64,000 nucleotides of DNA from Lentisphaerae bacterium ADurb.Bin242 (GTDB lineage: Bacteria; Verrucomicrobiota; Lentisphaeria; Victivallales; UBA1829): assembly GCA_002069785.1 (NCBI GenBank), contig MWCA01000019.1, positions 736 to 64,735 on the forward strand, read 5' to 3'. A program made the translations under genes and the position numbers. This document shows, one piece after another, positions 13,719 to 45,101 of this stretch (position 1 is the stretch's first letter; every line of letters starts with the position of its first letter). The notes below the pieces were generated by a model. The model worked only from the letters and a program-made list of their open reading frames with translations. It made no database searches and was not told where the DNA came from.

Positions 13719-13746
13719 TTGACAAAACAAAAAACCTTTGTATAAT
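13719..13746 (+). promoter_or_regulatory. near-consensus sigma70 promoter (TTGACA-16 nt-TATAAT) for the LacI/pseudopilin-like operon
   Basis: TTGACA at 13719-13724, 16-nt spacer, TATAAT at 13741-13746, 45 nt upstream of the LacI ATG. Confidence 0.65.
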
Positions 13747-13749
13747 AAT

Positions 13750-13767
13750 GCTGTAAACGATTACAGC
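13750..13767. promoter_or_regulatory. LacI-family-type palindromic operator
   Basis: GCTGTAAACGATTACAGC has 7-nt arms GCTGTAA/TTACAGC around a central CG and fits the TGnAAnCGnTTnCA pattern. It starts 3 nt after the -10 element. Confidence 0.6.
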
Positions 13768-13790
13768 AATTTTTTGAAACGGGCGTGAAG

Positions 13791-14801
13791 ATGAACCATG
13801 TGACTTTGAAAGACATTGCGGCCGCGGCGGGAGTCCGGCCCGCGGTCGTGTCGGTGGCGCTGAACAACAAGCGCTACACACGCGTCTCCCCCGTGCGCCG
13901 GGAAGAAATCCGCCGGATCGCCGAAAACATGGGATACCGCCCGAACATCGAAGCGGCCAGTCTCCGGCGGGGGAAGAAGGCCACGGTCGGAGTTTTTCTC
14001 CCTTCATGGGAGGATGTCCTGCTCCTCGAACTGATCCGGGGGCTTTCCGACGCCGCCAGCGAATTTTCCATTCCCCTGACTTTCTCCTTCGGAATGACGG
14101 CGGAATCCTATTTCCGTTTCATCGATTCCATGGATTCCTACCGGCATACCGGCATGATCAGTTATGTTCCCTTCTGGGACCGGAACTATGAACGGATCCT
14201 GGCGCGGCTGGAGGAATATATCGGCAATGGCGGAAAAGTCATTTCGCTCAACACCGCCGGATGGCCGATGAAGCAGACCATTTCCCTGGATATCGACGAA
14301 AAATGCGGCGGAACGCTCGCGGCAAAGCATCTGCTCCGCTTCAAAGGCCTGCGCTCGTATGCGCTTGTCAGCGTCGAAAGCCAGATCTATTATCTGCGGG
14401 ACGACGCCTTCTGCAAGGTTCTCGGAGTAGCCGGAAAAAAAGTCGGGAAATACCGGTTTGAATCCCTCCGGACGGCTTCCCCGGAGAAGATAACCGGATT
14501 TCTGGAACCCATGCTGGCGGAAGCGAAGCCGCCGGTCGGCATCTTCTCGACCAGTCCGGATTTCTGCCCCTGGATTTTCCTGCTGGCTGCCCGGCGCGGC
14601 TGGGTTTACGGAAAAGATTTTGAACTGGTCTGTTATGACCGGCCCTTCGGATTCGGCGATTTTCAGCCGGTCATGCGCATCATCCAGCCGTTCTATCGGA
14701 TCGGGTATATGGCCGTCGGAAAATTAAGCGACATGCTTATGAATAAAACAGTGTCATCGGAAATATTGAAGCCGGAATTAATTAAAGGAGGTCTTGCATG
14801 A
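13791..14801 (+). CDS. LacI-family transcriptional regulator
   Basis: N-terminal [27 protein letters not shown] followed by a periplasmic-binding-protein-like domain. ATG at 13791 preferred over the GTG at 13785. Confidence 0.8.
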
Positions 14802-15454
14802 ACCCGTATCGGAACAGATTCACATTGATCGAGCTCCTGGTCGTGATTGCGATCATCGCCATCCTGGCCGGAATGCTTCTGCCCGCGTTGAACCAGGCGA
14901 AGGAAACGGCCCGGAGCGTTCAATGCATCAACAATCTCAAGCAGCTTTCCCAGGGCGTGATCATGTATACGGACGACTACGCCGGGTGGATGCCGCCGCT
15001 CCAGAAGCCCGGCGGCGGATCGCCTTTCTGGGGAGAAACCATTTCCAAGGCCGGTTTCATCAATCCGAAAATCGCCAACTGCTCGAACTTGAAAAAGAGC
15101 AACTTCTACAGTTGGGGATACGCGTGGGAAAACACCTATGGCGTCTTCTACAATTCCCTTTTCGTCGACGGCGGGATCAACTATCCCCGGGCGTGCAAGA
15201 CGAACAAGCCTTCGGCCACCGGTTTCTTCGGGGATTCCGGCATCAAGGGGAGCTGGGCCATGAAGTATGTCATCTATGCATGGGAGTCGACCGGCACGGC
15301 CAACATCATGCTCCGGCACCGGAAGCTGGCGAACGTGGTGATGCTGGACGGCCATGCCGAATCGGTTCCCCGGCAGAAGATCTCAAAGCTCTCGGCCACC
15401 CAGGGACCCTATTATCTGCTGCTGAATGAAAACACCGTGGTCTATGTGCCCTGA
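14798..15454 (+). CDS. prepilin-type N-terminal domain protein, DUF1559 / H-X9-DG family (pseudopilin-like)
   Basis: [36 protein letters not shown] and C-terminal [13 protein letters not shown] (H-X9-DG). ATGA overlap with the LacI stop; AAAGGAGG Shine-Dalgarno 6 nt upstream. Confidence 0.85.
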
Positions 15455-15472
15455 TTGGAAAGGATGTGCAAT

Positions 15473-18400
15473 ATGAAACTGTCTCTGTCTCTCGGGTTGT
15501 TTTTGTGTATGTGCGGTGCTTTCTGCGGAGAAAATCTTGTCGGGAACGGCGATTTTTCCGCCGTCAGGGAGAACGGTATTCCCGAAAAATGGGGCGTGCA
15601 ATCGTGGGGGCCGCCGCTGGGAGAAGTGTCGGTGGACCGTTCGGATTTTATAAACGCGCCCGCCTCGCTGTGCATCCGCAACAAGGATGACGTCCAGCAG
15701 ACCTTTCTGTCGCAGGGAATCCGGCTGGAGCCGAATACTTCCTACTGCCTGAGCTATTACATCAAGGCGGAGAACATCACGGGAACCAAGCCGTTCTGCG
15801 GTGCGATGATCTACATCATGGACAGCGGGAACCCGCTTTTCAGCATCGGGAGCAGTTTGTACCGTCACGCGACCGGCTCCTTCGACTGGAAAAAAGTCGA
15901 GCATAAGTTCAAAACCAAAACGTTGCAGGGAAAATCCCTTTCGATTATTCTGGCGCTCCGCCAGGCGAGCGGATGCGTCCGTTTCGACGCCGTCCGGCTG
16001 GAGAAGGTGGAAGCCCCGGAAAAGACCGCAACGCTGAAGACCGAACTGTACCCGGTCGAGTTCCAGAACCGGACTTATTCCCTCTGCCGCAACTTTCCCG
16101 CCGCGCTTCTTCTCCGCATGACGCTGGACCGCAAGCGGATCGCGGACGGTTCCCTCCGGATGATTCTGGAGCTTCCCGAAGGAATCCGTTATATCGGTTC
16201 CGGGGCGCTCCTTCCCGCCCGGAATACAAAGAACGAGCTGGTTTTCGAGCGAGATGCATTTACCTCGGCTCCGGTTCTGCGCGACGGGAAGAAATACACC
16301 CGTTACGAGATCACTTTTGCGCCCGGTTTCGTCGGCAAGCTCGGACCGTCGCACGCCTGGGAAAATTATGACCGGATTTACCTGAAGGCGGAAGGCGCGC
16401 CCGGGGATGCCGGAAAAGTTTTCTGGCGTCTCCGCTCTTCTTCGAAAGAGTTTCCGGAAGAGTTTTTCCATGTCACGATCCTGCCGGAACTCGTGATGCC
16501 TCCGAAGCCCTGTTCCGTGTTCCAGCTTTGCATCCCGCGTCTGTGGAACATGAATTCGCCGGAGAACGTCAGCGAACTGTATACGAAGCTCTGGACATCG
16601 CTTCAGAAGCGGCCGTGGACTTCCAATCCATATTACATCCACGCTTTTCCGGAAGCGGAAAAGAAGCGGGTTTTCGATTCCTATAACTACACTCAGCATG
16701 TGGCCTCTTCCCGAAGCATGCCGTGGTTCGGCCCGCTCTACAATGCCGCGGCGCAGAACCGCTTCAAAGGGAAGCTTCCGCCTTCGGTCGGCGCGGACGG
16801 CAAGGCGATTCCCAACACGGTCAGCCCGTGGTATCTGATCGAGGACCCGGAGAACCTGATCTGGGGAGTCCTGGCCGATGAATATGCGAAAACGGTCCGT
16901 GCCAACCCGCACACCAAGGCGATCGCCCTGAACTACGAGCCGGGAACCATGTCGCATTGTTTCAGCACGGAAAGCCGGACCCGTTTCCGCGACTTTGCCA
17001 AACTTCCGGCCGTTCCTTCTGTGGCGGACATTCTTTCCAAATACAAGCCGGAGTGGCTCCGTTTCCGCATCCGCCAGCATCAGCAGATATTGGAACGGAT
17101 TTCCGCGATGATCCGCACCAGGCTGCCCGGCGTCGAATTCTGGCTGATCAGCGATCCGCTCCAGACGGGACGCCAGCGCGTTTCCGAGTGGTGCGGCGTG
17201 GATGTCCAGGCCGCCGATCCGATCGTCGACATTCATCAGGACATGCCCTACATCACAGGCGTACCTTTCTTCGAGATGATGAAGCTGAATATTTCCGAAC
17301 TGAAGAAGCCCTGTTTCCCCCTCATTGACCCGTCGGAGAACATGGCGATGTATTACAACCGTTACACGCCCGAAAAAGTGATGCAGAACATCGTTGCGAC
17401 GGCCGCGCTCGGCGGATACGGGATCGGTTTCTGGCCGGCCGATGTGTTCGACGGGCGTTACCTTCACTCCATCCGGGACGCCTATGCCGCCATTGCGGAA
17501 GTGGAACCGTTTTATACCGGAAAAGGGGTGACGAAGCCGGAGGTCCGCTTTGAAAGTAAAAATGTCGTCAAACTGGATGCGTCCGACGGCGGCGGAAACA
17601 GCACGAAGATTTCTTTCCCTCCGCTTGACCGGAACATCCGCGTGCTCGGCCACTGGAAAGGAAATGATTTTCTGGTCACTATCCTCAATTATAACGAAAA
17701 TTCGCCCGCGTTTCTCGAACTGGCCGTACCCGAGGTCCGGTCGCCTTATTATCAAGTCGAAGATGTGCTCGGAGGCCGCTTCTTCCTCTCCGACGGGAAA
17801 GCGCCCGGCGGAAAGGAAGTGAGGGACGGCTTCCTGGCGGAGGTTCCCTCGAACGGAACCCTGATTTTGAGGCTGACCGCCGGGAATTCGCCCTCGGTTC
17901 CCGCCGGGAACGCCGTCGATCAGAAGCAAATCCGTGAAAAGCTCGGAACGCTTCTGTCCCAATACAAAACCCGCAGCCGGATGCAGCCGTTCCGCGAGGG
18001 AAATTCCGCCGCATACTGGGAGATCCTGAAAGACTGCGGCCGGGCGGTCCTGTATCTGGAACAGGACGGCGGTCGTCTCGGGATCGCCGCTTTGGAGGGC
18101 AGCGAGGTGATTTCGTGGGAGTCTGCCGGGCGCGGACGTCCGGATTCCCTTTTCCATAAAGGGCGCGGCTTCCTGGGACGGTTCAACCTGAATTCCCCGG
18201 AACAGTCGCCCGATCCGTGCGTCTTTGAAATCGCCGAAATCACCCGCAGGGACGGAAATCCGTGCGTCGTTTTTCAGTACCGGGTGCCCGATTTCCAGAA
18301 CGCGTCCGCGATACAGAATCCGCTGAAAGACCTGACGATCCGGCAGAGCATCACCTTGTACGGCAACGGGAAAAAGTTCACGCTCGCGTATGAATTCACC

Positions 18401-18832
18401 AATCCGACCGGCAAGGAAATGACGTTTTCGTTCAAGGTCAATAATTTCCCGAAAATCGGGTCGGCCTTTGCCGGAGAGAAGACGATCAACTCCATCACGA
18501 ATATACGGTGCGGTTCCATCGCCTTTACTCCCGGCCGTCCGAAAACGCAGCGTCTGTTTCTGGTATCGAAAGATGTCGCGCCCGAACTGAGAAAACATCT
18601 GCTCTTCGGGCGTCTGGAGGCGGAAATTATTCAGCCCGGCGTCATCCGGGTGGAGGGCGGCGAAGAGCTCAAGGAAGTATTGACACTCGAACCGAAGCAG
18701 GACTATGACGGTCTTTACTCCTGGTCGAATCTGGAGGAAGGGTATACCGTCGAACCGGTTTCGTCGATGATCACGCTTGCCCCCGGCAAAAGCGTATCCT
18801 GGAGCTGCGACTACACTCTTTCCCGGGAATAG
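15473..18832 (+). CDS. large secreted protein, glycan-enzyme-like (N-terminal CBM-like module), function unknown
   Basis: Signal peptide MKLSLSLGLFLCMCGAFCGENLVGNGDFS. Distant paralog of the 39765-42647 protein (alignable block around MSHCFSTESRTRFRDFAKLP). Start at 15473 has a GGAAAGG Shine-Dalgarno 9 nt upstream. Confidence 0.6.
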   Translation: MKLSLSLGLFLCMCGAFCGENLVGNGDFSAVRENGIPEKWGVQSWGPPLGEVSVDRSDFINAPASLCIRNKDDVQQTFLSQGIRLEPNTSYCLSYYIKAENITGTKPFCGAMIYIMDSGNPLFSIGSSLYRHATGSFDWKKVEHKFKTKTLQGKSLSIILALRQASGCVRFDAVRLEKVEAPEKTATLKTELYPVEFQNRTYSLCRNFPAALLLRMTLDRKRIADGSLRMILELPEGIRYIGSGALLPARNTKNELVFERDAFTSAPVLRDGKKYTRYEITFAPGFVGKLGPSHAWENYDRIYLKAEGAPGDAGKVFWRLRSSSKEFPEEFFHVTILPELVMPPKPCSVFQLCIPRLWNMNSPENVSELYTKLWTSLQKRPWTSNPYYIHAFPEAEKKRVFDSYNYTQHVASSRSMPWFGPLYNAAAQNRFKGKLPPSVGADGKAIPNTVSPWYLIEDPENLIWGVLADEYAKTVRANPHTKAIALNYEPGTMSHCFSTESRTRFRDFAKLPAVPSVADILSKYKPEWLRFRIRQHQQILERISAMIRTRLPGVEFWLISDPLQTGRQRVSEWCGVDVQAADPIVDIHQDMPYITGVPFFEMMKLNISELKKPCFPLIDPSENMAMYYNRYTPEKVMQNIVATAALGGYGIGFWPADVFDGRYLHSIRDAYAAIAEVEPFYTGKGVTKPEVRFESKNVVKLDASDGGGNSTKISFPPLDRNIRVLGHWKGNDFLVTILNYNENSPAFLELAVPEVRSPYYQVEDVLGGRFFLSDGKAPGGKEVRDGFLAEVPSNGTLILRLTAGNSPSVPAGNAVDQKQIREKLGTLLSQYKTRSRMQPFREGNSAAYWEILKDCGRAVLYLEQDGGRLGIAALEGSEVISWESAGRGRPDSLFHKGRGFLGRFNLNSPEQSPDPCVFEIAEITRRDGNPCVVFQYRVPDFQNASAIQNPLKDLTIRQSITLYGNGKKFTLAYEFTNPTGKEMTFSFKVNNFPKIGSAFAGEKTINSITNIRCGSIAFTPGRPKTQRLFLVSKDVAPELRKHLLFGRLEAEIIQPGVIRVEGGEELKEVLTLEPKQDYDGLYSWSNLEEGYTVEPVSSMITLAPGKSVSWSCDYTLSRE

Positions 18833-19718: not shown

Positions 19719-22700
19719 TTACTTTCGGATTACGTACTCAACCCAGTCGGCGGGAACTTCCGCATGGAAGAGAAGTTTGCCGCCTTCCGCCCGGCTGGCA
19801 ACGGGTTTGAGGTTCCAGTCGGTTCCTGCCGAGAAGACCCTGGCTTTTCCCGGATCGATTCCGAGAGCGGCCGCATTTACGGAAATTTCCCCCCGGAACG
19901 GAATGCAGGAACGCTGGTAGCCGGTCGGCTGATGGACCATGAGGTTTTCGAGGGCGAATTCCTGTAGGTGCAGCGTATATTCGAGCTTCGGATTCGAATG
20001 GTCTCGCAGGAGACGTATTTCGAGCGCGGAGACACGGTTCCAGTCGAATCCCTTTTCCGATTGGATATGCCCGACTTTGGAACGGTTGAAATACTGCGGG
20101 GTCGTATAGCGGGTGAACCATCCTTGCTGATCGAGCTTGCCGACCCGTATCTGGCCGTACGGCCAGGCGGCGGACTTTCCGGTATTGTCGAAGAATGCAA
20201 CGTTGAAGGAACCGCCCGGCTTCGGGCCGTCGGCGCGGAGCCGCATCACGAATTCGTCAAATTTCTTGAAATCGATCGTCTTTCCGAAGTCGATCCGGAT
20301 TTTCTTTTCCTTGTCATCGTCCAGCACGATGTGGAAGGATTTGCCGGCGGTGCCCGGAATCGGTTCGGAGACACGGGTGAACGTCTTGCGGTAATGCGGA
20401 AGGTCGGTATGGCCGTTCTGATTGTTGAAGACGGCGACCGTCGCGCCGGAGCCGTCCTGAAGCCGGTTGACGAAGAGCTCGATTTTCCGGGAGGGGTCGG
20501 ACACCGCGGCGGCCTGCGGCTGGGCGTCCGCAATCTTCCCGATCAGGGCGAGGGTGAAATCCTTCGGGAGACGCCAGTGCCATTGGGAGGCTGTCAGGTA
20601 GACTTGTCCCCTGCCGTAGTTCCGGACCGTGCAAACGGGGATGGAATCATCCATCACCGCAAGCGGTGTTGCGGAAACGAGCTTGAGTTCGCGCAAGGAG
20701 AGGGAGGCCGCCCGGTAGCGCGCTTCGAGGGGGAATCCGAACTTCTGGGCGGAAATGAACCGGACCGTTCCGTTGCGTTCCGGCTGAAGCGGACCGGGGA
20801 GCACGCCGCAGACTTCGCGCAGGAAGTCTGCGCCGGTTCCGGAAAAGGTTCCGTCGCGCCCGAGACACTGTTCGGTATTGAGAAGGAGGGTCCCGCCGCC
20901 GGCGACGAATTTCTTGAGTCTTTCGGCCTGTTCCGTGTTCATGATGTTGACGGAAATCATCAGGATCATGGTATAGTCTTCCGGGCGGAACGGAGCGCGC
21001 CCGTAGAGCATGTCGATCGGGCCGTAGGGAGCTCCGGTAAACTGGCGGGCCGTATAAAAGGCGTTTCCGAAGTCCGGATAGAAAACATTGAGCAGCTCGA
21101 AATCGCGGATGTGCGAATGCGGGCCCCATTCGCTGACATGCTGTCCGGCTGCAAGCCCGTACGGGTCCTGGTTCCAGGTGAGGTTGGTGCCGTAGGCGCG
21201 GGCGTCGTCGCCGGTGACCGTGAGCGCACAGGAATCGCCGATGCCGCGAAGGATGGCGATCTTGTTCTCCGGGAACCCGATGCGGGGATGTTTCTTCAGG
21301 AATTCCGCAAATTGCTTGAGCGGGGGACGCGGCCATGCCTCGTGCCCGACCGCGGTGGCCCCGCTGAAAAATGAATATTGATAGAGACGTGTGTAGTCTT
21401 CCTCGGCGTAACGGGGCAGCTTGTCCCGCCAGGCGCTTGTAATCCGGGCAAATTCACCGGCGGTGCCCTGGTTGTCCGAGAGGACGCCCCAGTCGAGCGC
21501 GGAGGGAAGCCATGACCATTCCGTGACGGAAACGGCGAATTTTTTTCGGTACGCCTTGGTATCGCCGCGCAGGTTTGCCAGGGCGGAGTCAATATGCTGT
21601 CCCCGGAAGAGCTGCGTCAGGAAGAGATCGCAGCCGCCTTCGAACTGCGGTCCCGGAACTCCGAAGTTGTCCCATGCGAAAACGCCGATTCCCGCCGGCG
21701 ACCAGTAATCGAGAAATTCACGGACGGCGTCGATGAACAGCTGGTCGGCGTCGAGCCTGTCGCCGACTTTCCGGGGAGGCCGGTTGACGACCCAGTTGCG
21801 GCTCATGCCCCACTCATCGATCTGCGTCAGCATGGTTTCCGGATATTTCCATGCGAGCCAGCGGTATTCGTCGCGGGTGAAATTGCCGTGTCCGGGAGAC
21901 CGGACGGTTGGAAACCGGTCCCGGTCCCGGCTGTCCGGAATCCGGGAAAGGAAGACCGTGGCGAACTGGCTGCGCGGCGCGGCGTACCGCAGTATTTCCT
22001 CGGCGTTCAGAAATTCCTGCGGATAGGGAGTGAAAAAGTTTGCGCCATAGTCTTTGTACGGACCGGATTCAATGGCGTTGACGCCCTTGACGGTGGTATA
22101 GATGACATACCGGCCGTTGTATCCTTTCGCATCCAGAAAGTCGGCGCTGTTCCTGCCCTTGTATTTGCTTCGCGGAGTGTTTTCCGCAGCGGAGATTTCT
22201 TTTGCATGCCCCTTGCGCAGAGCGGCGATTTGCTCTTTCAGTTTTCCTGTTCCGGCCTCCAGGGAGCCGAGAAGACTCCGCAGGTTTTCCAGGCTTTTCA
22301 GCGGAATATCCCGCAGCAGGAGAACGGGCGGAATCCTCTCCCGCTGTTTGAGAAGGACGGACAGCCCTTCGTATTCGATCCGGGTGATCCGGTATCGGTT
22401 TTCGGCTTCGAGGATGCGGTCGGCCAGCCGGTAGAGTTCTCCCTGATCCTTCATTCCGGAGGCGGCGTCGAGATATTCCGGTTTCTGCGGTCCGGTGACG
22501 AAGGGGATCGCCGCGCCGTGAACGGAGCCGTCCTTGAGTTGGAATTTTCCGATGGCGAGATGCATTCCCGGCGCATACCTTTTGCTGTCGGCGAAATTGT
22601 TCTTGTACGGCGGGCTGCGCTGCGTCTGAATCAGTTCGGAATCGACATAACAGCGGAACACTTCCACTTCGGAATGCATGACTCCGCGAAGCTCGGCATG

Positions 22701-28255: not shown

Positions 28256-28276
28256 AGTTCAAGAAAGGACAGGAGA

Positions 28277-37016: not shown

Positions 37017-37163
37017 ATGCAAAAACCATATCGGTATTTTCCAATTTTTCTGATCTGCATATTTTTATTTGCCGGGATTTCCTGCGGAGAGGAAAACCAA
37101 ACGACTTCAGACCGGCATCAACTCGACTCGATGGGGATATCTCTTTATTCTTTGTATGCATAA
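37017..37163 (+). CDS. possible 48-aa signal-peptide/lipoprotein-like mini-protein
   Basis: MQKPYRYFPIFLICIFLFAGISCGEENQ.. has a hydrophobic N-terminus ending in Cys. The lipobox is non-canonical. Confidence 0.2.
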   Translation: MQKPYRYFPIFLICIFLFAGISCGEENQTTSDRHQLDSMGISLYSLYA

Positions 37164-37217
37164 AAAAGATATCCCCCAAAAAAGGTGTTATTATGGCGTA
37201 ACAGATGGAGAAGAACG

Positions 37218-38240
37218 ATGAAATTTTTATTGTTTTTTTTGGTTTTATCGGTAGCAGGATTCTGCATTTTCCTGACTATACATGTCCTGCCTGAAAATAA
37301 TAATGAACTAAATCTATTAATCCAGGAATATCAGAAAGCTGATTCAAATAAGAATATAGAAAAGCTAAAAAAAATTTCCATTCAATTTTCGGAGCTTGCT
37401 TCAAAAGCCAAAGGATACCGTCAGAAACTTTATATTGGTATGCAATTTTACCTTGATGGACAGATTGCTGAATATGCTAATGATGTCGAAAAAGAAAAAT
37501 CCTTTTATACGAAGGCATACCCTTATTTGTATTCGAAGAATACTGCAATTTGGGATATAAAGTTGTATATCGCTAGAAAATTATCTGAAATATATATGAA
37601 AGAAAAAAAATATGAATTGATGGATCGCTGGCTTGCGAGAATCGATTCCGTATTGAAAGAAATGGATTCTTTAAAGGTGGATGGGCGCAACGAAATCACA
37701 GCAGTTTATCATAAAGAAAAAGCATTTATTCTTTTAGATTCCAATGACATATCACGAGCTACACGAGAAGCTGAAATTTCATGGGAAATTTATCAGAAGC
37801 ATCCTCAAGATATTTCTCGAACCACTTTACGACATCTTTTTTACTTGAAAGCAAAAATTGCAATGGCGCGGAAAGAATACCTTGCCGCCATCAACTATAT
37901 CTCTTTTGCCTTAAAAAACTGGATCGATGAAGACGGACTTTTTCCATCTGGTTTTTACAAGATATTTGTTGATGCTCATCTGAAAAATGGAACTTCTGAG
38001 GAAGCAGTTCAAACGCTGAACCACATCCTTACCCACCCTCTGTTATATAAGCATGACAGAGCCAGAGCTGAATATATGAGTTTGTATTATTTAGCACAAA
38101 TTTACCAAAAGAACGAAAAAAATGCTCTTTCAAGAAAATATGCTGAACAAGCCATGCAATATTCTTTGCCTGTCGAAATCCGTGAAAACTTAAAATCTAT
38201 TTTTACTCCCCAAGAAGAATCTTATCACGCTCGGCATTGA
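37218..38240 (+). CDS. hypothetical membrane-anchored helical-repeat (TPR-like) protein
   Basis: Very AT-rich codon usage. N-terminal TM/signal anchor MKFLLFFLVLSVAGFCIFL, then repeated amphipathic helical pairs. GGAG Shine-Dalgarno 7 nt before the ATG at 37218. Confidence 0.55.
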   Translation: MKFLLFFLVLSVAGFCIFLTIHVLPENNNELNLLIQEYQKADSNKNIEKLKKISIQFSELASKAKGYRQKLYIGMQFYLDGQIAEYANDVEKEKSFYTKAYPYLYSKNTAIWDIKLYIARKLSEIYMKEKKYELMDRWLARIDSVLKEMDSLKVDGRNEITAVYHKEKAFILLDSNDISRATREAEISWEIYQKHPQDISRTTLRHLFYLKAKIAMARKEYLAAINYISFALKNWIDEDGLFPSGFYKIFVDAHLKNGTSEEAVQTLNHILTHPLLYKHDRARAEYMSLYYLAQIYQKNEKNALSRKYAEQAMQYSLPVEIRENLKSIFTPQEESYHARH

Positions 38241-38913
38241 CTTTAAAAATTTTCCACCATGCCCCATTTGTGCCCAGTGCTTTTTCCGCTTCATCGATGA
38301 TCCGGAGGGCATAATTCCGGACTTTTTCCATGATGCCGGTCGTCATTTTGAAAAATTCAAAATACACGCCGATGATTTTTCCGGCGATCGGCAACTCTTT
38401 GTGAAATCCGATGTCCTCAAGAAGCGTGATGAGTTCATCCATCGAAGCCTTTGCCTGGAACATCGCTTCCACTTCCTGCCGGGGAGTGATGTCGTTTCTG
38501 GAAAGCCGGCGTTTTTCCGCCTCCGCCCTGCGTAAAAGGTTGGCTGTTCCCATAACGATTTCCATTCCCCGGGTGAGTTTCGCTGTCTCCTGCTGGACTT
38601 TCTGGACAACGTCCATGATTCCCCAAAGTTTCCTGCTGACGTCCAGAAGGACATCGTTCTTATCAAGAAACCGTTTGATTTCCAGTTCCGACAAAGCGCG
38701 CTTATAGGCGCTCCGTGAATTGACCGGAATATAGCAGGCTTTAAAAATTTTCTCCGCGGTGAGAGCATTTTTGTCCGAACGGTGCACCTGAATATATTCA
38801 CAGATTTTTTTGTATGTATTCAAATCGGTAAACATCCGGGCCGCTTCTTTCTCGATGAGTTTACAGAATGGAACAATGTTTTTGTCATTCAGGGGGACGT
38901 TATCGTTTCCCAT
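38203..38913 (-). CDS. hypothetical all-helical protein (236 aa)
   Basis: GGAGG Shine-Dalgarno 6 nt before the ATG at 38913, 29 nt downstream of the preceding gene. No recognisable domain. Confidence 0.5.
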   Translation of the reverse strand: MGNDNVPLNDKNIVPFCKLIEKEAARMFTDLNTYKKICEYIQVHRSDKNALTAEKIFKACYIPVNSRSAYKRALSELEIKRFLDKNDVLLDVSRKLWGIMDVVQKVQQETAKLTRGMEIVMGTANLLRRAEAEKRRLSRNDITPRQEVEAMFQAKASMDELITLLEDIGFHKELPIAGKIIGVYFEFFKMTTGIMEKVRNYALRIIDEAEKALGTNGAWWKIFKVNAERDKILLGE

Positions 38914-38942
38914 TTCCAACCTCCATGGATTCCAGGTTCATT

Positions 38943-39404
38943 TCAAAAAGTCGCCGACATTTTTGCATTCAGGAGCAGTTTCCATCCCCGCAACTCAGGC
39001 CGCAGGGGAAGTTTTTCCGACGAGATTAATTGAACAGGGATATGATTCAGTTTCAACGGCATGCCCGGAACCGATCCTTTCAGGGCTGTCATGACTTTTT
39101 CATGCGTGTCCACGGCGGCGGTCTCGCAAGCTGGCACACCGTTCGTCTCCGCCAGAAGGAAAACATGATATTCGACGTCCTGAATGAGACCGCCGAATTG
39201 CGGATCGGCAAAAACATCTCCGGAAGAGACCACCGCCGCGGGAAACCTTGCAAGATCGTCCATGACATTGAAAAGCTCCGAGAAGATGGGAACTCCATAC
39301 AATGTCCGGACCTCGCTCAACAGAGGATTCCCCTGTGAATCCGTCAGAGCGGAGAGTTGCGCCTTGATGTCGTTGAGCGTTTCTTCCATTTTCGGAAAAT
39401 TCAT
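38943..39404 (-). CDS. hypothetical protein resembling phage Mu gp37/DUF1834-type tail-associated proteins
   Basis: AAAGGAG Shine-Dalgarno 7 nt before the ATG at 39404. The pattern MEETLNDIKAQLSAL..LLSEVRTLYG..ARFPAAVVSSGD resembles the N-terminal layout of that family, judged from memory only. Confidence 0.45.
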   Translation of the reverse strand: MNFPKMEETLNDIKAQLSALTDSQGNPLLSEVRTLYGVPIFSELFNVMDDLARFPAAVVSSGDVFADPQFGGLIQDVEYHVFLLAETNGVPACETAAVDTHEKVMTALKGSVPGMPLKLNHIPVQLISSEKLPLRPELRGWKLLLNAKMSATF

Positions 39405-39764
39405 TTTCAGACTCCTTTCAAACCATAAAATGATGTCGATATGCGACCGGAATGATCGCATTTCCATATTATATGCAGAGCGTCAAATAAAAAAATGCGG
39501 ATTTTCCGGAAAAGAAGATGTGGAAGCCGCAAGTGAAAAGAAGAAAAGCAGCGGATTGTGTGCTGAATGAGGCAAAACGGAAATTATGAGAAAAAATGAA
39601 AAAAGCTTTTATTCGTAAAAGAACGGATGAATCAAATTCCTCCGGGATAACCGACATTACCGGTACGGGAGAGAAGGCCGCGCAGTTCTTCCGCGCGGCT
39701 TTCGGCGGGACAGTCTGCCGGATCGACGCCGGTGCCGTCGAGCGGAATTTTTGTCGCGCCGGAA

Positions 39765-42647
39765 TTACAACCCGTCGGATGAAAATTGAAAAATGGTCGT
39801 CTCCAGCTGATCTTCGATCCTTCCTTTTCCGAGAGGCCGCGTTTCCCATTTGCGTCCGGGACCTTCCACTTTTTCTTCAGGAAGGAAATTTCCGAACCGG
39901 AGATTTTCCCGGGACGGTGCCACGATCCGGAGGGCGCTGCCGACCGGCTGGGCGGAAACGACAATCCCCCGCTTCAGTTCATCGCCCGACCACAGGAGCT
40001 TGCCGGAAGGCGAACGCTGGCAGGCCATGGAAACCGGCTCGTAAACAACCGTACCGTCGCGGCAGAGGGAAGGCGGCAGTTCGATCCGGAGAGTCCGTTT
40101 TTGAGCAAGGTCGAAGTTGAAATAGCTGACCAGCAGTCCGTCATGGAGCCGGTGGACCCGGCAACGCCAGAACGTTTCCGGAGGATTGCCGAAATAGACC
40201 CAGGGAGCCGCGAGGGAATCATCCCGGGGACGCTGTTTTTCCGGAATGAAATAATCATGGAAAGAGCATTCGCCGCTGATGTCCTTCCCGTCAAGGTAAT
40301 AGGCTTCCGTCCGGGCAAGTTCATGGGCCAGACGCATGTATTCCAGTTGGGTCAGCGCATCGACGGGCGCCCCTTCGAGAAGGATCCCTTTGGCTCCGGA
40401 CGAAGCATGTGCCAGCGCGCTGATCCGTGCGAGGCGCGGCCAGTCGTCGAGCCCGAGGGGACGGCGCTGGAAGTCTGCCAGAAGACGGCGCGACACCCAA
40501 GACCCCGCGTAGAAGGCAAGTCCTCCCACCGAACCCGTTTTCGGAATCACCGGGATTTTCAGTTCTTTTACGGAAACGGCCACCTGTTCATAGGCTTTGA
40601 GCCCGGAAAACAATGCATCGGGCAGGACAAAGTCAAACTCCGCTTCCTTCATCAGACGCGGATCTTCACAGAAAAGGGTTCGCCCGCGTCCCAGTCCCGG
40701 AAACACAAAATCGGTCTCGATATATTCAAAATCCATCCCGCTTACTATCTTTGGATTTCCGGCGCGCGCCATTTCCTTGAACATTTTGAACATCAGCGCC
40801 GACTGGTAATGACGGAAATAAATCCATTCCTTCGTATATTTCCGCGCCAGTTGAAGGGGCGTCAGCCCGGAAAGGGCCTCCGGATCAAGGCGGGCGAACG
40901 CGGCGAAATTTTTCCGGCAGTCCGCACAGTAACAACCATGGAACGTCTTACCTTCCCAGTCATGCCACATATAGTCGATTTCCTTGAAACGCGCAAAAGC
41001 CTCTTTGAGCCGCCGGTGGAGCGCGGTGTCCGTCCGTAAAAGATAACTGGGGCAAAAGCTGTGCTGCGGATTGTTGCCCTCGTACCTCACCTTGCCGTTG
41101 AGGAGGGTCCAGACCGAACCGGGCACGGGATTTTTCAGGTTTTCCATGGCTTCCTTGCGCAGGAAGTCATAGGGCGCGTGAAGCCTGAATCCGAGGCCGC
41201 GGAGGTGTTTTTTGAGTTCCGGCATTTCCGGCTTCATGTAGGGAGCCGTCTCCGGGCCGGAAAGCACTGTGATTCCCTGCGCCTTGAACATCGCAAGATA
41301 GGCTTCGCGCTGGGCCGCATCCGCCCAGACCAGATGCCGGAGCGGAGTGTGGGAATACCAGAGTCCGATTCGTTTTGGAACGTCCCGGTTGGGCGTCCAC
41401 GGCAGGATTTCACCGTGTCCGGTAAAGAGTTCGCCCGGTTCCGTTCCCGGTTTCTGAAGCTGCCAGCGGTAGATGAACGGCGTGGCGGCGGACACTTCGG
41501 GGGTCTTCAGATACAAATACAGCTGATGATGTTTGATGCTGTCGAAGAGATTCTTGTCGCAGACGAAGGTGATCGGATCGGGCGCCTGGAGAAGGTAGCG
41601 GCGTCCGGGACGGCCTTCCAGCGAAATGGGTTCCGTCTGGAAGGAGGTCTGGACGGAGCGCGGAATCCAATAGTTGAAAACGACGGCCTTCTGAAGCTCG
41701 ATCCCTGCCGGAAGGTCCAGCCGGAACCGGAGTTCTTTCATCGGCGGGGCGCCGTCTTTCCGCTGATAAAAGAGAACCGCCATCGGATTGGGAAAATTGC
41801 CGAGCAGGAACATTTTCCGGTCGTCGCGGTACAGCGTGGGGTCCCAGAAGACCTGAATGGCTCCGTCCAGCCCGGTTTTCCGTTTGGGCTTCACCGATGC
41901 GTCCGGATACAACGCATTCAGGGATTTTTCCGGGTCCGCGCCGACAAACAGAAGTTTGAAACGGAAATCGAGGGTGTCTCCGGGCTTGACCTCCTGAATT
42001 TCTCCGAACGGTCCCTTGTTGAGTTCGTATCCGAAACGGCAGCGTCCGGGCATCTTCCGGTAATTGCGGAAAATTCCGGCGCCCGTCTTGCGGTTGTTTT
42101 CCACGATCACCAGGAGGCCGCGTCCCGAGGAGCGGTCGAAAATCCCGTGAAAGAAATCGTAACTTTTATCGAGGTTGGCGAGAAGCCCGGCGGTGTCGGC
42201 AACATTCAATTCCCATTCTTCGCTGTGAAGCACGGCATCGGCGGAAGGCGCGCCGGAAACGACCGGCATGCGGAGAATGCCGATCCGCAGCGGCTGTTTG
42301 ATGGTGAGGCGGAGCCGGACGTCCGCCGTGTCGGAATTTTTTTCCAGCCTCAAGGTCTGGACGCAGGAATAGGCGGTTCCTTCCCGATGGATCGTAATTT
42401 CTTCGCCTCCGGCGGTTGCCTTTTTCCGGGTCGAAATAACCACGGATTTTTCTTCGATGGCGGTCGGGTGGAGAAATTCGAGCAGTTTGATTTCCCGGAT
42501 CAGATTGGAGGCGCCCGCGGGCGTCACTTCAACGAGGGTTCCATCTTCGACGGCCAGCCGGACACGGCCGTTGTCAAGCGTGAATTTTTCCGCCGCCGGG
42601 AGCGATCCCAGCGCGAGGAGGAGAGCAACGGCGGAAAAAAAATTCAT
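39765..42647 (-). CDS. large secreted protein, glycan-enzyme-like with CxCxxC motif, function unknown
   Basis: Signal peptide MNFFSAVALLLALGSLPAAE; GCYCADCRKNF motif. ATGA overlap with the upstream LamG-like gene. The track ORF extension to 42926 is out-of-context read-through. Confidence 0.6.
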   Translation of the reverse strand: MNFFSAVALLLALGSLPAAEKFTLDNGRVRLAVEDGTLVEVTPAGASNLIREIKLLEFLHPTAIEEKSVVISTRKKATAGGEEITIHREGTAYSCVQTLRLEKNSDTADVRLRLTIKQPLRIGILRMPVVSGAPSADAVLHSEEWELNVADTAGLLANLDKSYDFFHGIFDRSSGRGLLVIVENNRKTGAGIFRNYRKMPGRCRFGYELNKGPFGEIQEVKPGDTLDFRFKLLFVGADPEKSLNALYPDASVKPKRKTGLDGAIQVFWDPTLYRDDRKMFLLGNFPNPMAVLFYQRKDGAPPMKELRFRLDLPAGIELQKAVVFNYWIPRSVQTSFQTEPISLEGRPGRRYLLQAPDPITFVCDKNLFDSIKHHQLYLYLKTPEVSAATPFIYRWQLQKPGTEPGELFTGHGEILPWTPNRDVPKRIGLWYSHTPLRHLVWADAAQREAYLAMFKAQGITVLSGPETAPYMKPEMPELKKHLRGLGFRLHAPYDFLRKEAMENLKNPVPGSVWTLLNGKVRYEGNNPQHSFCPSYLLRTDTALHRRLKEAFARFKEIDYMWHDWEGKTFHGCYCADCRKNFAAFARLDPEALSGLTPLQLARKYTKEWIYFRHYQSALMFKMFKEMARAGNPKIVSGMDFEYIETDFVFPGLGRGRTLFCEDPRLMKEAEFDFVLPDALFSGLKAYEQVAVSVKELKIPVIPKTGSVGGLAFYAGSWVSRRLLADFQRRPLGLDDWPRLARISALAHASSGAKGILLEGAPVDALTQLEYMRLAHELARTEAYYLDGKDISGECSFHDYFIPEKQRPRDDSLAAPWVYFGNPPETFWRCRVHRLHDGLLVSYFNFDLAQKRTLRIELPPSLCRDGTVVYEPVSMACQRSPSGKLLWSGDELKRGIVVSAQPVGSALRIVAPSRENLRFGNFLPEEKVEGPGRKWETRPLGKGRIEDQLETTIFQFSSDGL

Positions 42648-43258
42648 TTCCCGGAATCCTTCATGTTGACTTTTTGAATACAGAACGCCGTGTTGTTGTA
42701 TCCGCAGACGCTGACAATGATCGGTTCGGCAAGAGGAGCGGGTTTCGGGACTTCCAGAAGGAGTTTGCCGTCGATTGCGGCCGTGACTTTGCCGTCCGCC
42801 CAGCGGATGGCGAGCGTGTGCGCTTCGCCTTTTTTCCATTTCCCGATGTTCAGATTGACCGTTTTCCCGGCGACGGATGCGCTGAGTATCTGATAGGTCG
42901 GCGCTATGACCGAGTTGAAAGCCCACTGCGTTTTGTCCTGCCAGACAATTTCCAGAAGGGTCATGCTTTCCGTCTTTTGCGCATCCTTGTAGAATCCCAT
43001 GTCCGCAATCGGGGCGACGGTTACTTCAATACTTCCCGTTTCCGCGGCGAATTTCGGAGGATTCTGTATTTGGAAACCGGCATATTTCCCGGGTTCCGCG
43101 GCGATGATGCCGCCGTTCTTTCCGGCGGGAAGAATCTCGATGTTTCGCATCCTTTTCCGGAAGGAATCCAGTTTTTCAGCGCCGGCCGTGAAGTCGATTT
43201 CGGTTCCCCGGACACCGAGGGCAGCCGCGAACAAAAGGATCGGGAGCAGTTTTTTCAT
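42644..43258 (-). CDS. secreted concanavalin/LamG-like lectin-fold protein
   Basis: Signal peptide MKKLLPILLFAAALGVRG; GEAHTLAIRWADGKVTAAIDGKLL, typical of a LamG jelly-roll. Confidence 0.5.
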   Translation of the reverse strand: MKKLLPILLFAAALGVRGTEIDFTAGAEKLDSFRKRMRNIEILPAGKNGGIIAAEPGKYAGFQIQNPPKFAAETGSIEVTVAPIADMGFYKDAQKTESMTLLEIVWQDKTQWAFNSVIAPTYQILSASVAGKTVNLNIGKWKKGEAHTLAIRWADGKVTAAIDGKLLLEVPKPAPLAEPIIVSVCGYNNTAFCIQKVNMKDSGK

Positions 43259-43308
43259 GGGATCACCTTTTCTCTTTGGATAATTTCATGTTTCCATGAC
43301 ATGGATTT

Positions 43309-43932
43309 TCAATCTTTGCCGGGCGTCAGCATCGAGGTTTTGACGCTGTTTTTTCTCACGGCGCGCGCACTGCCGTCCGCAAACAGGGCGTTGGTCTGCT
43401 TGCTGTGGCGGAACGCCAGATAATTGGCCGCGGTCCACTCGTTCAGGAGATAGGAGACCGGTGAAACCGCCCCCGTTCCGTGATCGCCCGTGATCAGCGT
43501 ATCCGAGTGGACTTTGGTCGCTTTCAGGCTGTTCGATGCATCGATGATGACATTGTAGTTGAACGCATAGTCGGTTCCGATCTCGCCCTGGTTGTGTTTT
43601 GTCTCCGACGGACAGTACTGGGTATCCCGGTTGTAAAAGGTATATCCGACCGGAAGCTTGAAGTAGTGATGCCGGAGGTATCTGGTGAAGTAAATCGACG
43701 GGGCTCCGTAAGGCCACGGAGGATAGTAGCACATGGTGGTCGGATAAAATTCGCGATTGTCGTCGATATACTGGAAAAAAACAAGGCCGTTCTGCTTGAG
43801 CTGTCCCAGGCATTTGATGGCCTGCGCGGAATTTCTAGCTCGGTTGAGGGCGGGCAGAAGCATTCCCGCCAGGATGGCGATGATCGAAATTACAATGAGA
43901 AGTTCTATCAATGTGAACCGTTTCCACTTCAT
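43309..43932 (-). CDS. prepilin-type N-terminal domain protein, DUF1559 / H-X9-DG family (pseudopilin-like)
   Basis: [34 protein letters not shown]; HSKQTNALFADGS (H-X9-DG). ATGA overlap with the LacI stop; GGAG Shine-Dalgarno 8 nt upstream. Confidence 0.85.
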   Translation of the reverse strand: MKWKRFTLIELLIVISIIAILAGMLLPALNRARNSAQAIKCLGQLKQNGLVFFQYIDDNREFYPTTMCYYPPWPYGAPSIYFTRYLRHHYFKLPVGYTFYNRDTQYCPSETKHNQGEIGTDYAFNYNVIIDASNSLKATKVHSDTLITGDHGTGAVSPVSYLLNEWTAANYLAFRHSKQTNALFADGSARAVRKNSVKTSMLTPGKD

Positions 43933-45023
43933 TTTTGTGTCTCCGTTATTTTTGTGTTTTTGGTGGATTTGGATGAATGATTCCGTTCGGAGGAATTTTC
44001 CGGGACTTTTTTCCGGTGGATGAACCATGTGGGAACCCGGGTGTCGGACACCTCCCCGATGCGGCATTTTCCGGTGAGATGGCCGATCAGAAGTTCCACG
44101 GTGCGCCGGGCCATTTCCGCGCGGGGGACGGCGATGGTGGAACAAGTGTTGTAAACGGGATTGTTGTCGTAGCCGATGACGGCGGGCCGGTTCGGAATGC
44201 GGCGGTATTCGAATTCGCGTTCCAGCATGTTGGCCATGGTGTCGTTGCTGCAGAAGACCGCGTCCAGCGACTCGTAAAACTTGTCGTCCACCAGTTTGCG
44301 GATGGAAAAAACATCCTGCACGTGAAAGAAATTGTCCTCCCGGCAGAGGCCGCGTTCCCGGAGCACTTTCCGCAGAACATTCAGGATTGCTTCGGAGTGC
44401 ATCCGCTCCGGCTCGAACAGGAGTCCGATACGGCGGCGACGGGACTTGAGCAGAAAATCGACCGCCTGCCGGTATCCGGTCTCCGGGTTCGGGTAAAACA
44501 TGGCAGGGGTTGCGGAACTGGTGAAGTTCATCGTGACATACGGAAAACGGGCGGCGGACAGGGCGGGAAAAAGCGGCCCGAAAAATTCGGGCGTAAGAAA
44601 AACCGCACCGTCCGTATGGGCGAAATCCAGTTTTCCGGTAAGGAAGGAGACATTTTCATCCTGGACCGGCTCGAGCTTGACGTCATATCCGTGTTCACGT
44701 GCTTTCCGGATGACGCTGAAAATCACTTCCCATTGTGTCAGGCGCACGTGGGAATCGAAGTCCAGCGAACGCGGCGTCTGTGTGAAGAACGGCGGAAGGA
44801 CCAGCGAGATCGTCTCATGACGGCGGATCCGGAGGCTCCGGGCGACCGGGTTCCCGCGGTATCCGCAGCTTTCGGCACATCGGCGGATCTGTTCCCGGAC
44901 CTTCGGGCTGATCCGTCCGCGCGGCGGAACGGAAAGCGCGCGGGAGACCGTCGAGACCGAAACTCCGCATTTTTCCGCAAGGATTTTCAGGGAAACCAGA
45001 TTGTCGGGCTGTCGGGACGGCAT
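43929..45023 (-). CDS. LacI-family transcriptional regulator
   Basis: HTH LKILAEKCGVSVSTVSRALS plus a sugar-binding-type domain. Confidence 0.8.
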   Translation of the reverse strand: MPSRQPDNLVSLKILAEKCGVSVSTVSRALSVPPRGRISPKVREQIRRCAESCGYRGNPVARSLRIRRHETISLVLPPFFTQTPRSLDFDSHVRLTQWEVIFSVIRKAREHGYDVKLEPVQDENVSFLTGKLDFAHTDGAVFLTPEFFGPLFPALSAARFPYVTMNFTSSATPAMFYPNPETGYRQAVDFLLKSRRRRIGLLFEPERMHSEAILNVLRKVLRERGLCREDNFFHVQDVFSIRKLVDDKFYESLDAVFCSNDTMANMLEREFEYRRIPNRPAVIGYDNNPVYNTCSTIAVPRAEMARRTVELLIGHLTGKCRIGEVSDTRVPTWFIHRKKVPENSSERNHSSKSTKNTKITETQK

Positions 45024-45051
45024 GAATAAAAATTCCTCCGATTTTTATTAT

Positions 45052-45067
45052 GAGCAATCGATTGCTC
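45052..45067. promoter_or_regulatory. perfect 16-bp palindromic LacI-type operator
   Basis: GAGCAATCGATTGCTC is a perfect palindrome with a central CG, lying between the -10 element and the LacI start codon. Confidence 0.65.
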
Positions 45068-45073
45068 TTTTTC

Positions 45074-45101
45074 ATTATACAGCATTTCCCGGAAATGTCA
45101 A
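45074..45101 (-). promoter_or_regulatory. near-consensus sigma70 promoter (TTGACA-16 nt-TATAAT) for the LacI/pseudopilin-like operon
   Basis: Minus strand reads TTGACA (45101-45096), 16-nt spacer, TATAAT (45079-45074), then 6 nt and the operator. Confidence 0.65.

Follow-up and report, generated by a model that had tools for sequence, protein, structure and literature searches.

Sugar-type regulators, type IV pilin-like proteins and large secreted proteins encoded together in recurrent small operons of Lentisphaerota

In a 64-kb stretch of DNA from Lentisphaerae bacterium ADurb.Bin242 (contig MWCA01000019.1 of assembly GCA_002069785.1; the whole stretch is hereafter called the window), a gut-type Lentisphaerota genome, we identified four cassettes, each of them a small operon whose structural genes start with one for a type IV pilin-like protein. 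Downstream of each pilin gene lie genes for one or two signal-peptide proteins, including large ones of 758-1119 residues, and a LacI or AraC regulator gene is found immediately upstream in three of the four cases. Judging from these features, each cassette appears to be a sugar-inducible operon, with a LacI- or AraC-type regulator that would control a very strong sigma-70-type promoter. This promoter would drive a pilin-like protein of the H-X9-DG/DUF1559 kind and, tightly coupled to it, large Sec-exported multi-domain proteins that look carbohydrate-active. The association between pilin, regulator and large protein is real, because its positional bias in related loci (p ~1e-13, see below) exceeds what gene density would give.

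All components belong to known kinds, namely LacI/AraC regulators, H-X9-DG/DUF1559 pilin-like proteins and secreted proteins resembling carbohydrate-active enzymes (CAZymes). As far as the searchable literature shows, the novelty resides in the fixed operon order of regulator, pilin and enzyme, in which each sugar-regulated unit has a single pilin module of its own and the filament machine would be supplied in trans. We found no description of this arrangement in that literature, including a 2026 catalogue of marine CAZyme clusters. The pilin family is described there only as of 'unknown function' or 'solute-binding-like', with no report of the cassette context, in keeping with an earlier note on this DNA, which had called the family one without established function. 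Bacteria of the Planctomycetota-Verrucomicrobiota-Chlamydiota (PVC) superphylum are major polysaccharide degraders devoid of SusC/D, which raises the question of how their enzymes are exported or polymers imported. The DUF1559/H-X9-DG pilin-like proteins are among the largest paralogous families of PVC genomes, and the operon link gives this orphan, hugely expanded family a first testable clue to its role.

Organization of the four cassettes

A six-frame motif scan of the window yielded exactly four open reading frames (ORFs) with the FTLIELL motif, every one of them located within positions 13719-45101, and all four match the Pfam N_methyl or the TIGR02532 prepilin domain. The ORFs bear out the four repeats that the earlier note had delineated in this region, and our gene calls are essentially identical to those of the public annotation (GCA_022703945.1, JAKJHI010000030.1). 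Housekeeping genes coding for a phosphoribosyltransferase (HPRT), AIR carboxylase, FtsQ and CarB separate the cassettes, with rmlC and rmlD just outside. The cassettes are four separate, small and dispersed operons, not a single locus.

Cassette i, on the forward strand, starts with a LacI-family regulator gene (13785-14801; Pfam LacI, E 8.6e-10), for which the public annotation gives a protein of 336 residues starting at the ATG at 13791. It is followed by pilin-like gene 1 (14798-15454, 218 residues), whose product has the FTLIELL segment with E+5 and the H-X9-DG motif, and, after a gap of 18 nucleotides, by the gene of a 1119-residue signal-peptide protein (15473-18832). On the reverse strand, cassette ii comprises pilin-like gene 2 (22913-23752, 279 residues), coding for a protein with Gly at -1 and a degenerate H-X9-DG motif, and 59 nucleotides further on the gene of a 1044-residue signal-peptide protein (19719-22853). 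A 252-residue ORF upstream of cassette ii (24144-24902) was considered as a potential regulator and rejected: it has no Pfam match, and its translation is devoid of signs of DNA binding. Because this ORF shows no regulator features, cassette ii is counted as lacking an adjacent regulator.

In cassette iii, an AraC-family regulator gene on the reverse strand (26406-27317; Pfam HTH_18, E 2.5e-20, and AraC_binding) is divergent from pilin-like gene 3 on the forward strand (27446-28255; 254 residues with a start at 27491 in the public annotation). The gene of a 758-residue signal-peptide protein (28277-30553, forward strand) follows 21 nucleotides after the latter. The GC content of cassette iii (27446-30553) is 0.49-0.53, below that of its surroundings, and its codon-usage scores of 14 and 19 are by far the lowest, the other called genes ranging from 33 to 350; low GC content and codon-usage scores suggest that this cassette is a more recent acquisition.

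Cassette iv, on the reverse strand, consists of the gene of a 364-residue LacI-family regulator (43929-45023; Pfam LacI and Peripla_BP_3), pilin-like gene 4 (43309-43932, 207 residues, with the H-X9-DG motif), the gene of a 204-residue signal-peptide protein (42644-43258) and that of a 960-residue signal-peptide protein without a Pfam match (39765-42647). The 204-residue protein is kept in a sister strain and is weakly lectin/ConA-like; the match behind its previous description as 'LamG-like' is weak (TS_C, E 0.009).

The coupling of these genes is tight. The ORF coordinates give 4-nucleotide ATGA overlaps between the LacI and pilin genes of cassettes i (14798-14801) and iv (43929-43932) and between the 204- and 960-residue protein genes (42644-42647), so that the overlaps and the short gap before the 1119-residue protein gene reported earlier are both found. 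Of the ~46 window proteins scanned, none has the domain of a pilus ATPase, a platform protein, a secretin or a prepilin peptidase, in line with the earlier observation that no pilus assembly genes accompany the cassettes. No Pfam domains of SusC-like TonB-dependent transporters or SusD-like lipoproteins were found in the scanned proteins either, and none of the four cassettes contains a transporter gene.

Three of the cassettes are preceded by perfect TTGACA-N16-TATAAT promoter sequences, at 13719-13746 on the forward strand for cassette i and at 23805-23832 and 45074-45101 on the reverse strand for cassettes ii and iv, respectively. As the earlier note had indicated, these are full consensus sites; they are the only three of the window, and none appeared in 100 shuffles. 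For cassette iii a promoter had also been proposed; a promoter-like site is indeed present (27358-27386, forward strand), of sequence TTGCGA-N17-TATAAT, but it matches the consensus at only 10 of 12 positions.

Both LacI cassettes also harbour the predicted palindromic operators, in the form of perfect palindromes with a central CG downstream of the -10 box. In cassette i, the operator-like palindrome is 20 bp long (TGCTGTAAACGATTACAGCA, 13749-13768) and lies 2 nucleotides after the -10 box, and in cassette iv it is 16 bp long (GAGCAATCGATTGCTC, 45052-45067) and lies directly after it. Related loci have similar layouts: L085 has a near-identical palindrome, TGCAGTAATCGATTACTGCA, at the position matching that of TGCTGTAAACGATTACAGCA; in L084, TTGACA...TATAAT is followed by ATAAACGTTTAT; and L086, which has a GntR-type regulator, shows the same promoter-plus-palindrome layout with TTGTCTATACAA. 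The 1.02 Mb of related loci contain seven perfect consensus promoters, four of which precede a regulator-then-pilin pair. In both LacI cassettes the operon begins with the regulator gene itself, and the features expected of LacI-family operons are present, namely a LacI helix-turn-helix domain in both regulators, a Peripla_BP_3 domain detected in that of cassette iv, and putative operators. By analogy with classical LacI-family operon logic, the promoters with palindromes look like those of strong, repressor-gated, autoregulated operons.

Conservation of the association in PVC bacteria

From GTDB species representatives we collected 80 loci that encode relatives of the window's four pilins, in Victivallales and other Lentisphaerota, Verrucomicrobiota, Planctomycetota and Kiritimatiellia, and called genes on the 77 loci of at least 3 kb. 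The sample is biased toward relatives of pilin 1. Position-resolved regulator counts were obtained with hidden Markov models built for the present analysis. Regulators of the LacI/periplasmic-binding-protein (PBP) type are found at position -1 relative to the pilin gene in 14 of 86 cases and AraC regulators in 7 of 86; the corresponding figures are 7/72 and 2/72 at position -2, and 0/259 and 1/259 at positions +1 to +6. Altogether, sugar-type regulators occupy position -1 in 21/86 cases, compared with 5/443 at positions outside -1 and -2 (Fisher p ~1e-13), and the association holds beyond gene density, as the earlier note had supposed. In a Pfam census, 90 upstream neighbours of pilin genes included 13 proteins with Peripla_BP_3, 10 with GntR and 7 with AraC-type domains. 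Among 126 other genes taken from these loci as a control, 3 coded for AraC-type proteins, and Peripla_BP_3 was not among the 25 commonest families of this control set, each of at least two members.

Large proteins are enriched downstream. Proteins of at least 600 residues coded on the same strand account for 24/50 downstream positions compared with 76/439 others (p 3e-6), and those with a signal-peptide-like N-terminus for 17/50 compared with 35/439. In Lentisphaerota-labelled loci, a regulator is the first non-pilin upstream gene in 19/41 cases, and a protein of at least 600 residues is coded within two genes downstream in 19/36; in the other PVC loci these proportions are 3/59 and 13/52. The full, regulator-containing cassette is mainly a feature of Lentisphaerota. 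The massive expansion of the family mentioned in the earlier note stands, but the cassette is a general trait neither of PVC bacteria nor of DUF1559 proteins.

The downstream proteins are not mutual orthologues. Only two similarity groups have several members, with eight DUF4838-like proteins and four proteins of the 1119-/960-residue family, respectively. Pfam searches identified DUF4838, Laminin_G_3, CBM_4_9, sulfatase, GH5, rhamnosidase and F5/8-C domains, and many proteins have no match. The partner proteins are very diverse, with DUF4838 proteins, a large unannotated family with carbohydrate-binding modules, esterases and sulfatases.

The trio is kept in different genetic environments. 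A 64%-identical orthologue of pilin 1 is part of a LacI-pilin-1099-residue protein trio whose flanks are entirely different (MlaD, ribonucleotide reductase, GidA). A second contig of the same genome, L085 (GCA_040391785.1, JBEBXH010000043.1), carries three cassettes in 16.7 kb, namely AraC | pilin-DUF4838, LacI-pilin-1247-residue protein, and LacI-pilin-beta-helix protein. On this contig, positions 1-1521 hold the end of a gene for a 7538-residue product, which adjoins the three cassettes. On a 5.6-Mb contig the order is GntR/PBP regulator, pilin and 768-residue protein. Larger operons also occur: that of L087 encodes a GDSL lipase, a pilin, HAD, DUF4838 and Laminin_G_3 proteins, a GH63-like protein and others, with the LacI gene last. 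A widespread Victivallis vadensis-type locus begins with LacI, a secreted tandem protein similar to carbohydrate-binding modules (CBM), a pilin and an acetyl-xylan-esterase-like protein, and continues with DUF4434, an SSF transporter, DUF4434 and a 647-residue protein.

The closest pilin heads adjoin related enzymes: that of pilin 3 groups with pilins from L023 and L006, which lie beside DUF4838 proteins, and that of pilin 1 with those of L084 and L085. Clustering by head similarity of the pilins located beside DUF4838 enzymes was not significant (p 0.13), and close relatives alone co-vary. Because related heads and enzymes travel together while the flanks differ, the cassettes seem to duplicate and diverge as units.

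The pilin-like proteins and their large partners

In an alignment of 107 homologues, F+1 (F8) and E+5 (E12) are invariant, and a whole 22-letter segment shows little or no variation. The same holds in this alignment for one Cys pair, for Y57, W78, Y114 and D146, and for the H174/N179/D184/G185 block, with H174, N179, D184 and G185 conserved in at least 90% of the sequences. The family profile aligns with GspG and with assembling pilins from one end of the alpha1 helix to the other, with an E-value of 3.5e-15 for Thermus PilA, and shows no match to known pilins or GspG past this helix. Matches to the GspG and GspH models are likewise confined to the N-terminal helix, and the best pilin scores are well below the equivalog cut-offs (30.7 versus 88.85 for GspG, TIGR01710; 28.3 versus 80 for GspH, TIGR01708).

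Affiliation to the H-X9-DG/DUF1559 family, as proposed in the earlier note, is partly upheld. Pilin 1 scores 32.5 bits against PF07596 (DUF1559, SBP_bac_10; threshold 23.3), over profile positions 2-45 of 268 only, and most of its homologues carry the precomputed PF07596 signature and are called 'prepilin-type processing-associated H-X9-DG protein' by JGI. Pilins 2-4 have no match to PF07596 at E <= 0.01. TIGR04294, the H-X9-DG model, detects pilin 4 at 17.8 bits, below its cut-off of 19, and is absent in the other three. Pilins 1 and 4 carry an exact H-X9-DG motif, and pilins 2 and 3 a degenerate one. Judged by curated models, the membership of three of the four proteins is weak.

An AlphaFold2 model of pilin 1 (predicted local distance difference test, pLDDT, 79.4; predicted template modelling score, pTM, 0.78) comprises a helix of residues 10-60 and a small beta-sheet of 6-7 strands, and the predicted fold is the classic lollipop of an alpha1 helix plus a beta-sheet. 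Foldseek comparisons with solved structures found nothing resembling the head, and the pilin 1ay2 was matched through the N-terminal helix only. The Pfam name SBP_bac_10 would imply a periplasmic-binding-protein fold; such a fold was also considered and was seen neither in the AlphaFold2 model nor in the Foldseek results.

A Gly residue at -1 is canonical in prepilins and needed by the known prepilin peptidases. The -1 residues of window pilins 1-4 are R, G, N and R (14798-14818, 23677-23700, 27545-27551 and 43917-43932, respectively). Gly is found at this position in 4/48 Lentisphaerota pilins and in 13/107 close homologues, whereas Gly or Ala is present in 56/62 pilins of the other PVC loci. 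The combination of non-Gly residues at -1 with invariant F+1 and E+5 suggests either a peptidase of relaxed specificity or unprocessed proteins in this lineage.

All large cassette proteins have signal peptides. 'Carbohydrate-active' is well supported for one of them and plausible for two, and the label of enzymes, given to them in the earlier note, is putative for three of the four. The 758-residue protein combines a DUF4838 domain (Pfam E 2.3e-19) with a GH2 N-terminal sugar-binding domain (Pfam E 9.1e-11), and a profile of 10 DUF4838 relatives showed weak links to GH115, GH67 and GH42 structures. Single-sequence searches of the Protein Data Bank (PDB) with the large proteins returned nothing useful; the profiles gave these links and a carbohydrate-binding-module match (see below). 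A second DUF4838 protein of 738 residues with a CBM9 domain, 27% identical to the 758-residue protein, is coded on the reverse strand at 61753-63969, toward the window end, and what precedes its gene falls outside the window.

The 1119-residue protein belongs to a large family for which Pfam and NCBIfam have no model. A word-index search yielded only nine other entries, all full-length and 51-85% identical, and a full profile search yielded 1309 cluster representatives, 128 of them below 1e-30. Its conserved central domain (~residues 430-750) is joined to CBM4_9, CBM9, Laminin_G_3 or F5/8-C domains in remote members, and profile searches showed that its N-terminus resembles the carbohydrate-binding module of hyaluronate lyase (E 1e-5). 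One of three remote homologues whose loci were inspected is coded in a GntR/PBP-pilin-enzyme cassette. In an AlphaFold2 model of modest quality (pLDDT 66), the predicted layout consists of an N-terminal carbohydrate-binding module, a beta-sandwich, a central alpha/beta domain and a C-terminal mutarotase-like supersandwich. Foldseek matched the model to multi-domain glycoside hydrolases of families GH2, GH13, GH66, GH39 and GH36, with low TM-scores. We regard the family as a candidate new CAZyme family. More generally, unannotated enzyme families travel with the pilins, and those like the 1119-residue family (~1300 cluster representatives) are candidate new carbohydrate-active enzymes.

The 960-residue protein is weakly similar to the 1119-residue protein in the central region. 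It has no Pfam, NCBIfam or PDB match, and its single homologue in the word-index search of 5.8 billion proteins, 98% identical, is from a sister strain. The 1044-residue protein has only a sub-threshold match to the GH42 middle (trimerisation) domain (GH42M). The idea of a single catalytic fold for all four large proteins finds no support, since a profile-profile comparison of the 1119-residue and DUF4838 families showed no relationship.

Other genes of the window were also inspected. At 57223-61746, a unit composed of a GntR-type regulator (333 residues) and an 898-residue protein (DUF4910 plus an aminoglycoside-N-acetyltransferase-like domain) represents a regulator-plus-large-protein unit without a pilin; it also holds a 315-residue ORF with a CBM9-like domain, the call of which overlaps the 898-residue protein gene by 187 nucleotides. 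A xylose-isomerase-like TIM-barrel gene and a gene for a melibiase-like protein of 743 residues, at 46822-50001, have no pilin or regulator gene next to them. Since this sugar-related pair has no pilin, the glycan genes of the genome do not all obey the cassette rule. Divergent from the promoter region of cassette i, a run of genes on the reverse strand (9325-13460) codes for a 264-residue signal-peptide protein, a DUF4886 protein and a 670-residue protein without a Pfam match; the gene of the latter is split into pieces of 524 and 51 residues in the sister strain GCA_018435045.1. Finally, an island of low GC content (0.41-0.48, compared with ~0.57 for the window) is found between carB and cassette iv, at 36400-39760. 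Its ORFs (37185-38240 on the forward strand, 38203-38919 and 38943-39467 on the reverse strand) have no Pfam match, and a PADLOC scan of the island gave no meaningful match. From its composition, the island may be foreign DNA.

Possible roles of the pilins and comparison with known systems

The co-orientation and tight coupling of the genes, the pilin-type N-termini, the lack of assembly genes in cis in the window and the conserved linkage are directly visible, and from them we tentatively favour a role of the pilin in enzyme export, the first-ranked of the mechanisms considered but one that we would not call probable. The sugar-type regulator would induce the pilin and the downstream large proteins of its own operon. 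The pilins would be interchangeable, substrate-specific subunits that a single, common type II secretion/type IV filament machine takes up; its genes would lie elsewhere in the genome, and it would be used in trans. The induced pilin would serve as a specificity adaptor of the pseudopilus, coupling the machine to the enzymes of the same operon, which would be driven out by way of the secretin in the outer membrane or be presented on the cell surface. There, the carbohydrate-binding modules of the enzymes would meet their polymeric substrate. In the cultured Lentisphaerae strain WC36, laminarin up-regulates genes for a secretin and for type II secretion system (T2SS) components, namely T2SS-E and T2SS-F, and the transcript level of a 'GspH family' gene is very high on laminarin, 15123 versus 3729 (PMC11361711, supplementary file 1). 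A shared filament machine acting in trans is plausible because WC36 has such a machine, responsive to polysaccharide.

Several observations weigh against this export role. The canonical Gly at -1 is missing in three of the four window pilins and in most Lentisphaerota relatives, and because of these non-Gly residues the processing of the pilins and their assembly into filaments are only putative. Foldseek and profile comparisons show no likeness between the pilin head and any known minor pilin that binds cargo. The 'GspH family' gene of WC36 is at best a candidate member of the present pilin family, and both the pilin-enzyme interaction and the exit of the enzymes from the periplasm are hypothetical steps. 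Two of the three remote homologues of the 1119-residue protein are found in loci without a pilin nearby. The ratio of pilins to large proteins is not 1:1, one pilin preceding zero to four of the latter, and in Lentisphaerota loci a large partner is missing downstream in 17 of 35 pilin operons. The pilin had been called the constant partner of a regulator and a large enzyme, and it does recur with sugar-type regulators and large proteins, but about half of the related pilins lack a large partner downstream. The counts of pilins and large proteins per operon revealed no 1:1 rule and did not separate the two main mechanisms. Because of these zero to four large proteins per pilin and the many solitary pilins, a strict one-pilin-one-enzyme rule is disfavoured and a role in glycan capture is kept close to enzyme export; the data agree better with the proposal of a pilin for each substrate or operon than with a pilin for each enzyme.

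Glycan capture and import, the rival closest to the reading of the earlier note and the second in our ranking, is possible although rather unlikely. The variable pilin head would act in the manner of a 'fishing rod', or of SusD, by binding the polysaccharide targeted by the operon, and a retractile filament or its tip would pull the polymer through the secretin for degradation by periplasmic enzymes. The number of pilins, one or two per operon rather than one per enzyme, the many solitary pilins and the highly variable head on an invariant alpha1 helix all favour it, as does the Victivallis vadensis-type operon, in which the pilin is accompanied by an SSF transporter and a tandem CBM-like protein that is secreted. 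The very strong promoters and the level of the WC36 GspH-family transcript on laminarin would also fit an abundant structural subunit. Dextran-binding fibres and an explicit 'pilin-like fishing rod' hypothesis have been reported in Planctomycetes (PMC5394234; PMC12078418). However, the head of ~150 residues shows no similarity to a carbohydrate-binding module or lectin in Foldseek comparisons and the residues conserved in it appear to be structural ones, a transporter is lacking from all four window cassettes, the scanned window proteins include neither a retraction ATPase nor a secretin, and the carbohydrate-binding modules of the enzymes themselves suggest direct contact with the polymer.

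An improbable alternative is that the pilins form no filaments at all. Their uncleaved N-terminus would be a signal anchor, and the periplasmic head would scaffold, chaperone or tether the co-expressed enzymes independently of a pilus machine. The rarity of Gly at -1 (4/48 Lentisphaerota pilins, 13/107 homologues), the lack of assembly genes in cis in the window and the translational coupling to the enzymes are consistent with this idea; the absolute conservation of F+1 and E+5 in 107 sequences is hard to explain unless a mature F1 N-terminus and filament packing matter, and the alpha1 helix shares homology over its entire length with that of pilins that assemble. Substrate-induced adhesive pili seem less probable still: the pilin would be the major subunit of a surface pilus by which the cell adheres to particles of the polysaccharide that induces it, like the chitin-regulated pilus of Vibrio, with no direct role in export or import. 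Strong, putatively inducible promoters, the high WC36 transcript level on laminarin and a variable, surface-exposed head argue for such pili, but this reading leaves unexplained the fixed position of the pilin gene directly before, and coupled to, those of secreted proteins, and there would be no precedent for a genome with hundreds of alternative major pilins. At the bottom of our ranking, and already contradicted, is a chance neighbourhood, in which pilin genes would be so numerous that adjacency means nothing. Their density is indeed high (four per 64 kb in the window, three per 16.7 kb in L085), but the strong positional and directional bias (p ~1e-13), the persistence of the trio despite different flanking genes, the 4-bp gene overlaps and the consensus promoters common to the cassettes make it scarcely credible.

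Among known families, the H-X9-DG/DUF1559 proteins of PVC bacteria (PF07596, TIGR04294) are the closest to the cassette pilins, with the same prepilin N-terminus and C-terminal H-x9-DG region. The cassette pilin heads are very divergent, pilin 1 alone passing the Pfam model, by its N-terminal end only, and the Lentisphaerota members mostly lack Gly at -1. Planctopirus has 68 DUF1559/H-X9-DG paralogues, two of which are essential, and their function is unknown (PMC10632474). The fixed operon context described here is absent from the family description.

In the maltose-regulated pullulanase secreton of Klebsiella, a sugar-responsive regulator co-induces a large secreted glycan-degrading enzyme and pseudopilin genes. 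The T2SS thus shares with the cassettes pilin-like subunits with E+5 and a sugar-regulated large secreted enzyme. In Klebsiella the whole machine (~14 genes, including five pseudopilin genes) is induced for one enzyme, whereas in the cassettes a single pilin accompanies each enzyme operon; because it travels alone in this way, the shared machine would have to act in trans. With no machine genes, the window cassettes are not Pul-type secretons. Pairs of a minor pilin and a secreted protein are known in type IVb pili, namely TcpB-TcpF and CofB-CofJ, and provide a precedent for a cargo-specific pilin, since a specific pilin is needed there to export a soluble protein of the same operon. These pairs lie inside complete pilus operons, one pair per system, in pathogens, and their heads have no sequence or fold similarity to the cassette pilin.

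Other pili combine a shared machine with substrate recognition or induction. Neisseria ComP is a receptor pilin for the DNA uptake sequence, and a Vibrio pilus is chitin-regulated, so that a pilin gives substrate specificity to a shared machine in one case and a polysaccharide induces a pilus in the other. Unlike the cassettes, these are single systems per genome, with no pairing with secreted enzymes. The 'fishing-rod' hypothesis for polysaccharide uptake by Planctomycetes, in which dedicated pilin-like proteins bind polysaccharides (Boedeker et al. 2017, PMC5394234; restated in PMC12078418), concerns the same superphylum, and the expanded pilin family is a plausible candidate for this role. 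The basis of that hypothesis is the microscopy of fibres that bind dextran, and no genes are named in it, whereas the operon linkage described here is mainly found in Lentisphaerota.

The polysaccharide utilization loci (PULs) of Bacteroidota, with SusC/SusD, resemble the cassettes in having one dedicated non-enzymatic partner per substrate-regulated glycan operon, with many paralogues. The earlier comparison with a PUL-like architecture does not carry further: the cassettes are small dispersed operons without a transporter, a TonB-dependent transporter or a SusC or SusD homologue, and the likeness of the pilin to SusC/D is purely formal. Their regulators are of the LacI, GntR-PBP or AraC type, whereas those of PULs are hybrid two-component or extracytoplasmic function (ECF)/anti-sigma systems. 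It is conceivable, if speculative and on balance doubtful, that Lentisphaerota, and perhaps PVC bacteria more widely, acquire glycans by means of hundreds of regulator-switched, substrate-specific pilins operating on one shared filament machine, which would capture and reel polysaccharide into the periplasm or export the matching enzymes. If so, this would explain both the expansion of the DUF1559/H-X9-DG family and the 'selfish' uptake of polysaccharides in PVC bacteria, and the pilin family would be a functional equivalent of SusC/D, without counterpart in Bacteroidota or Proteobacteria.

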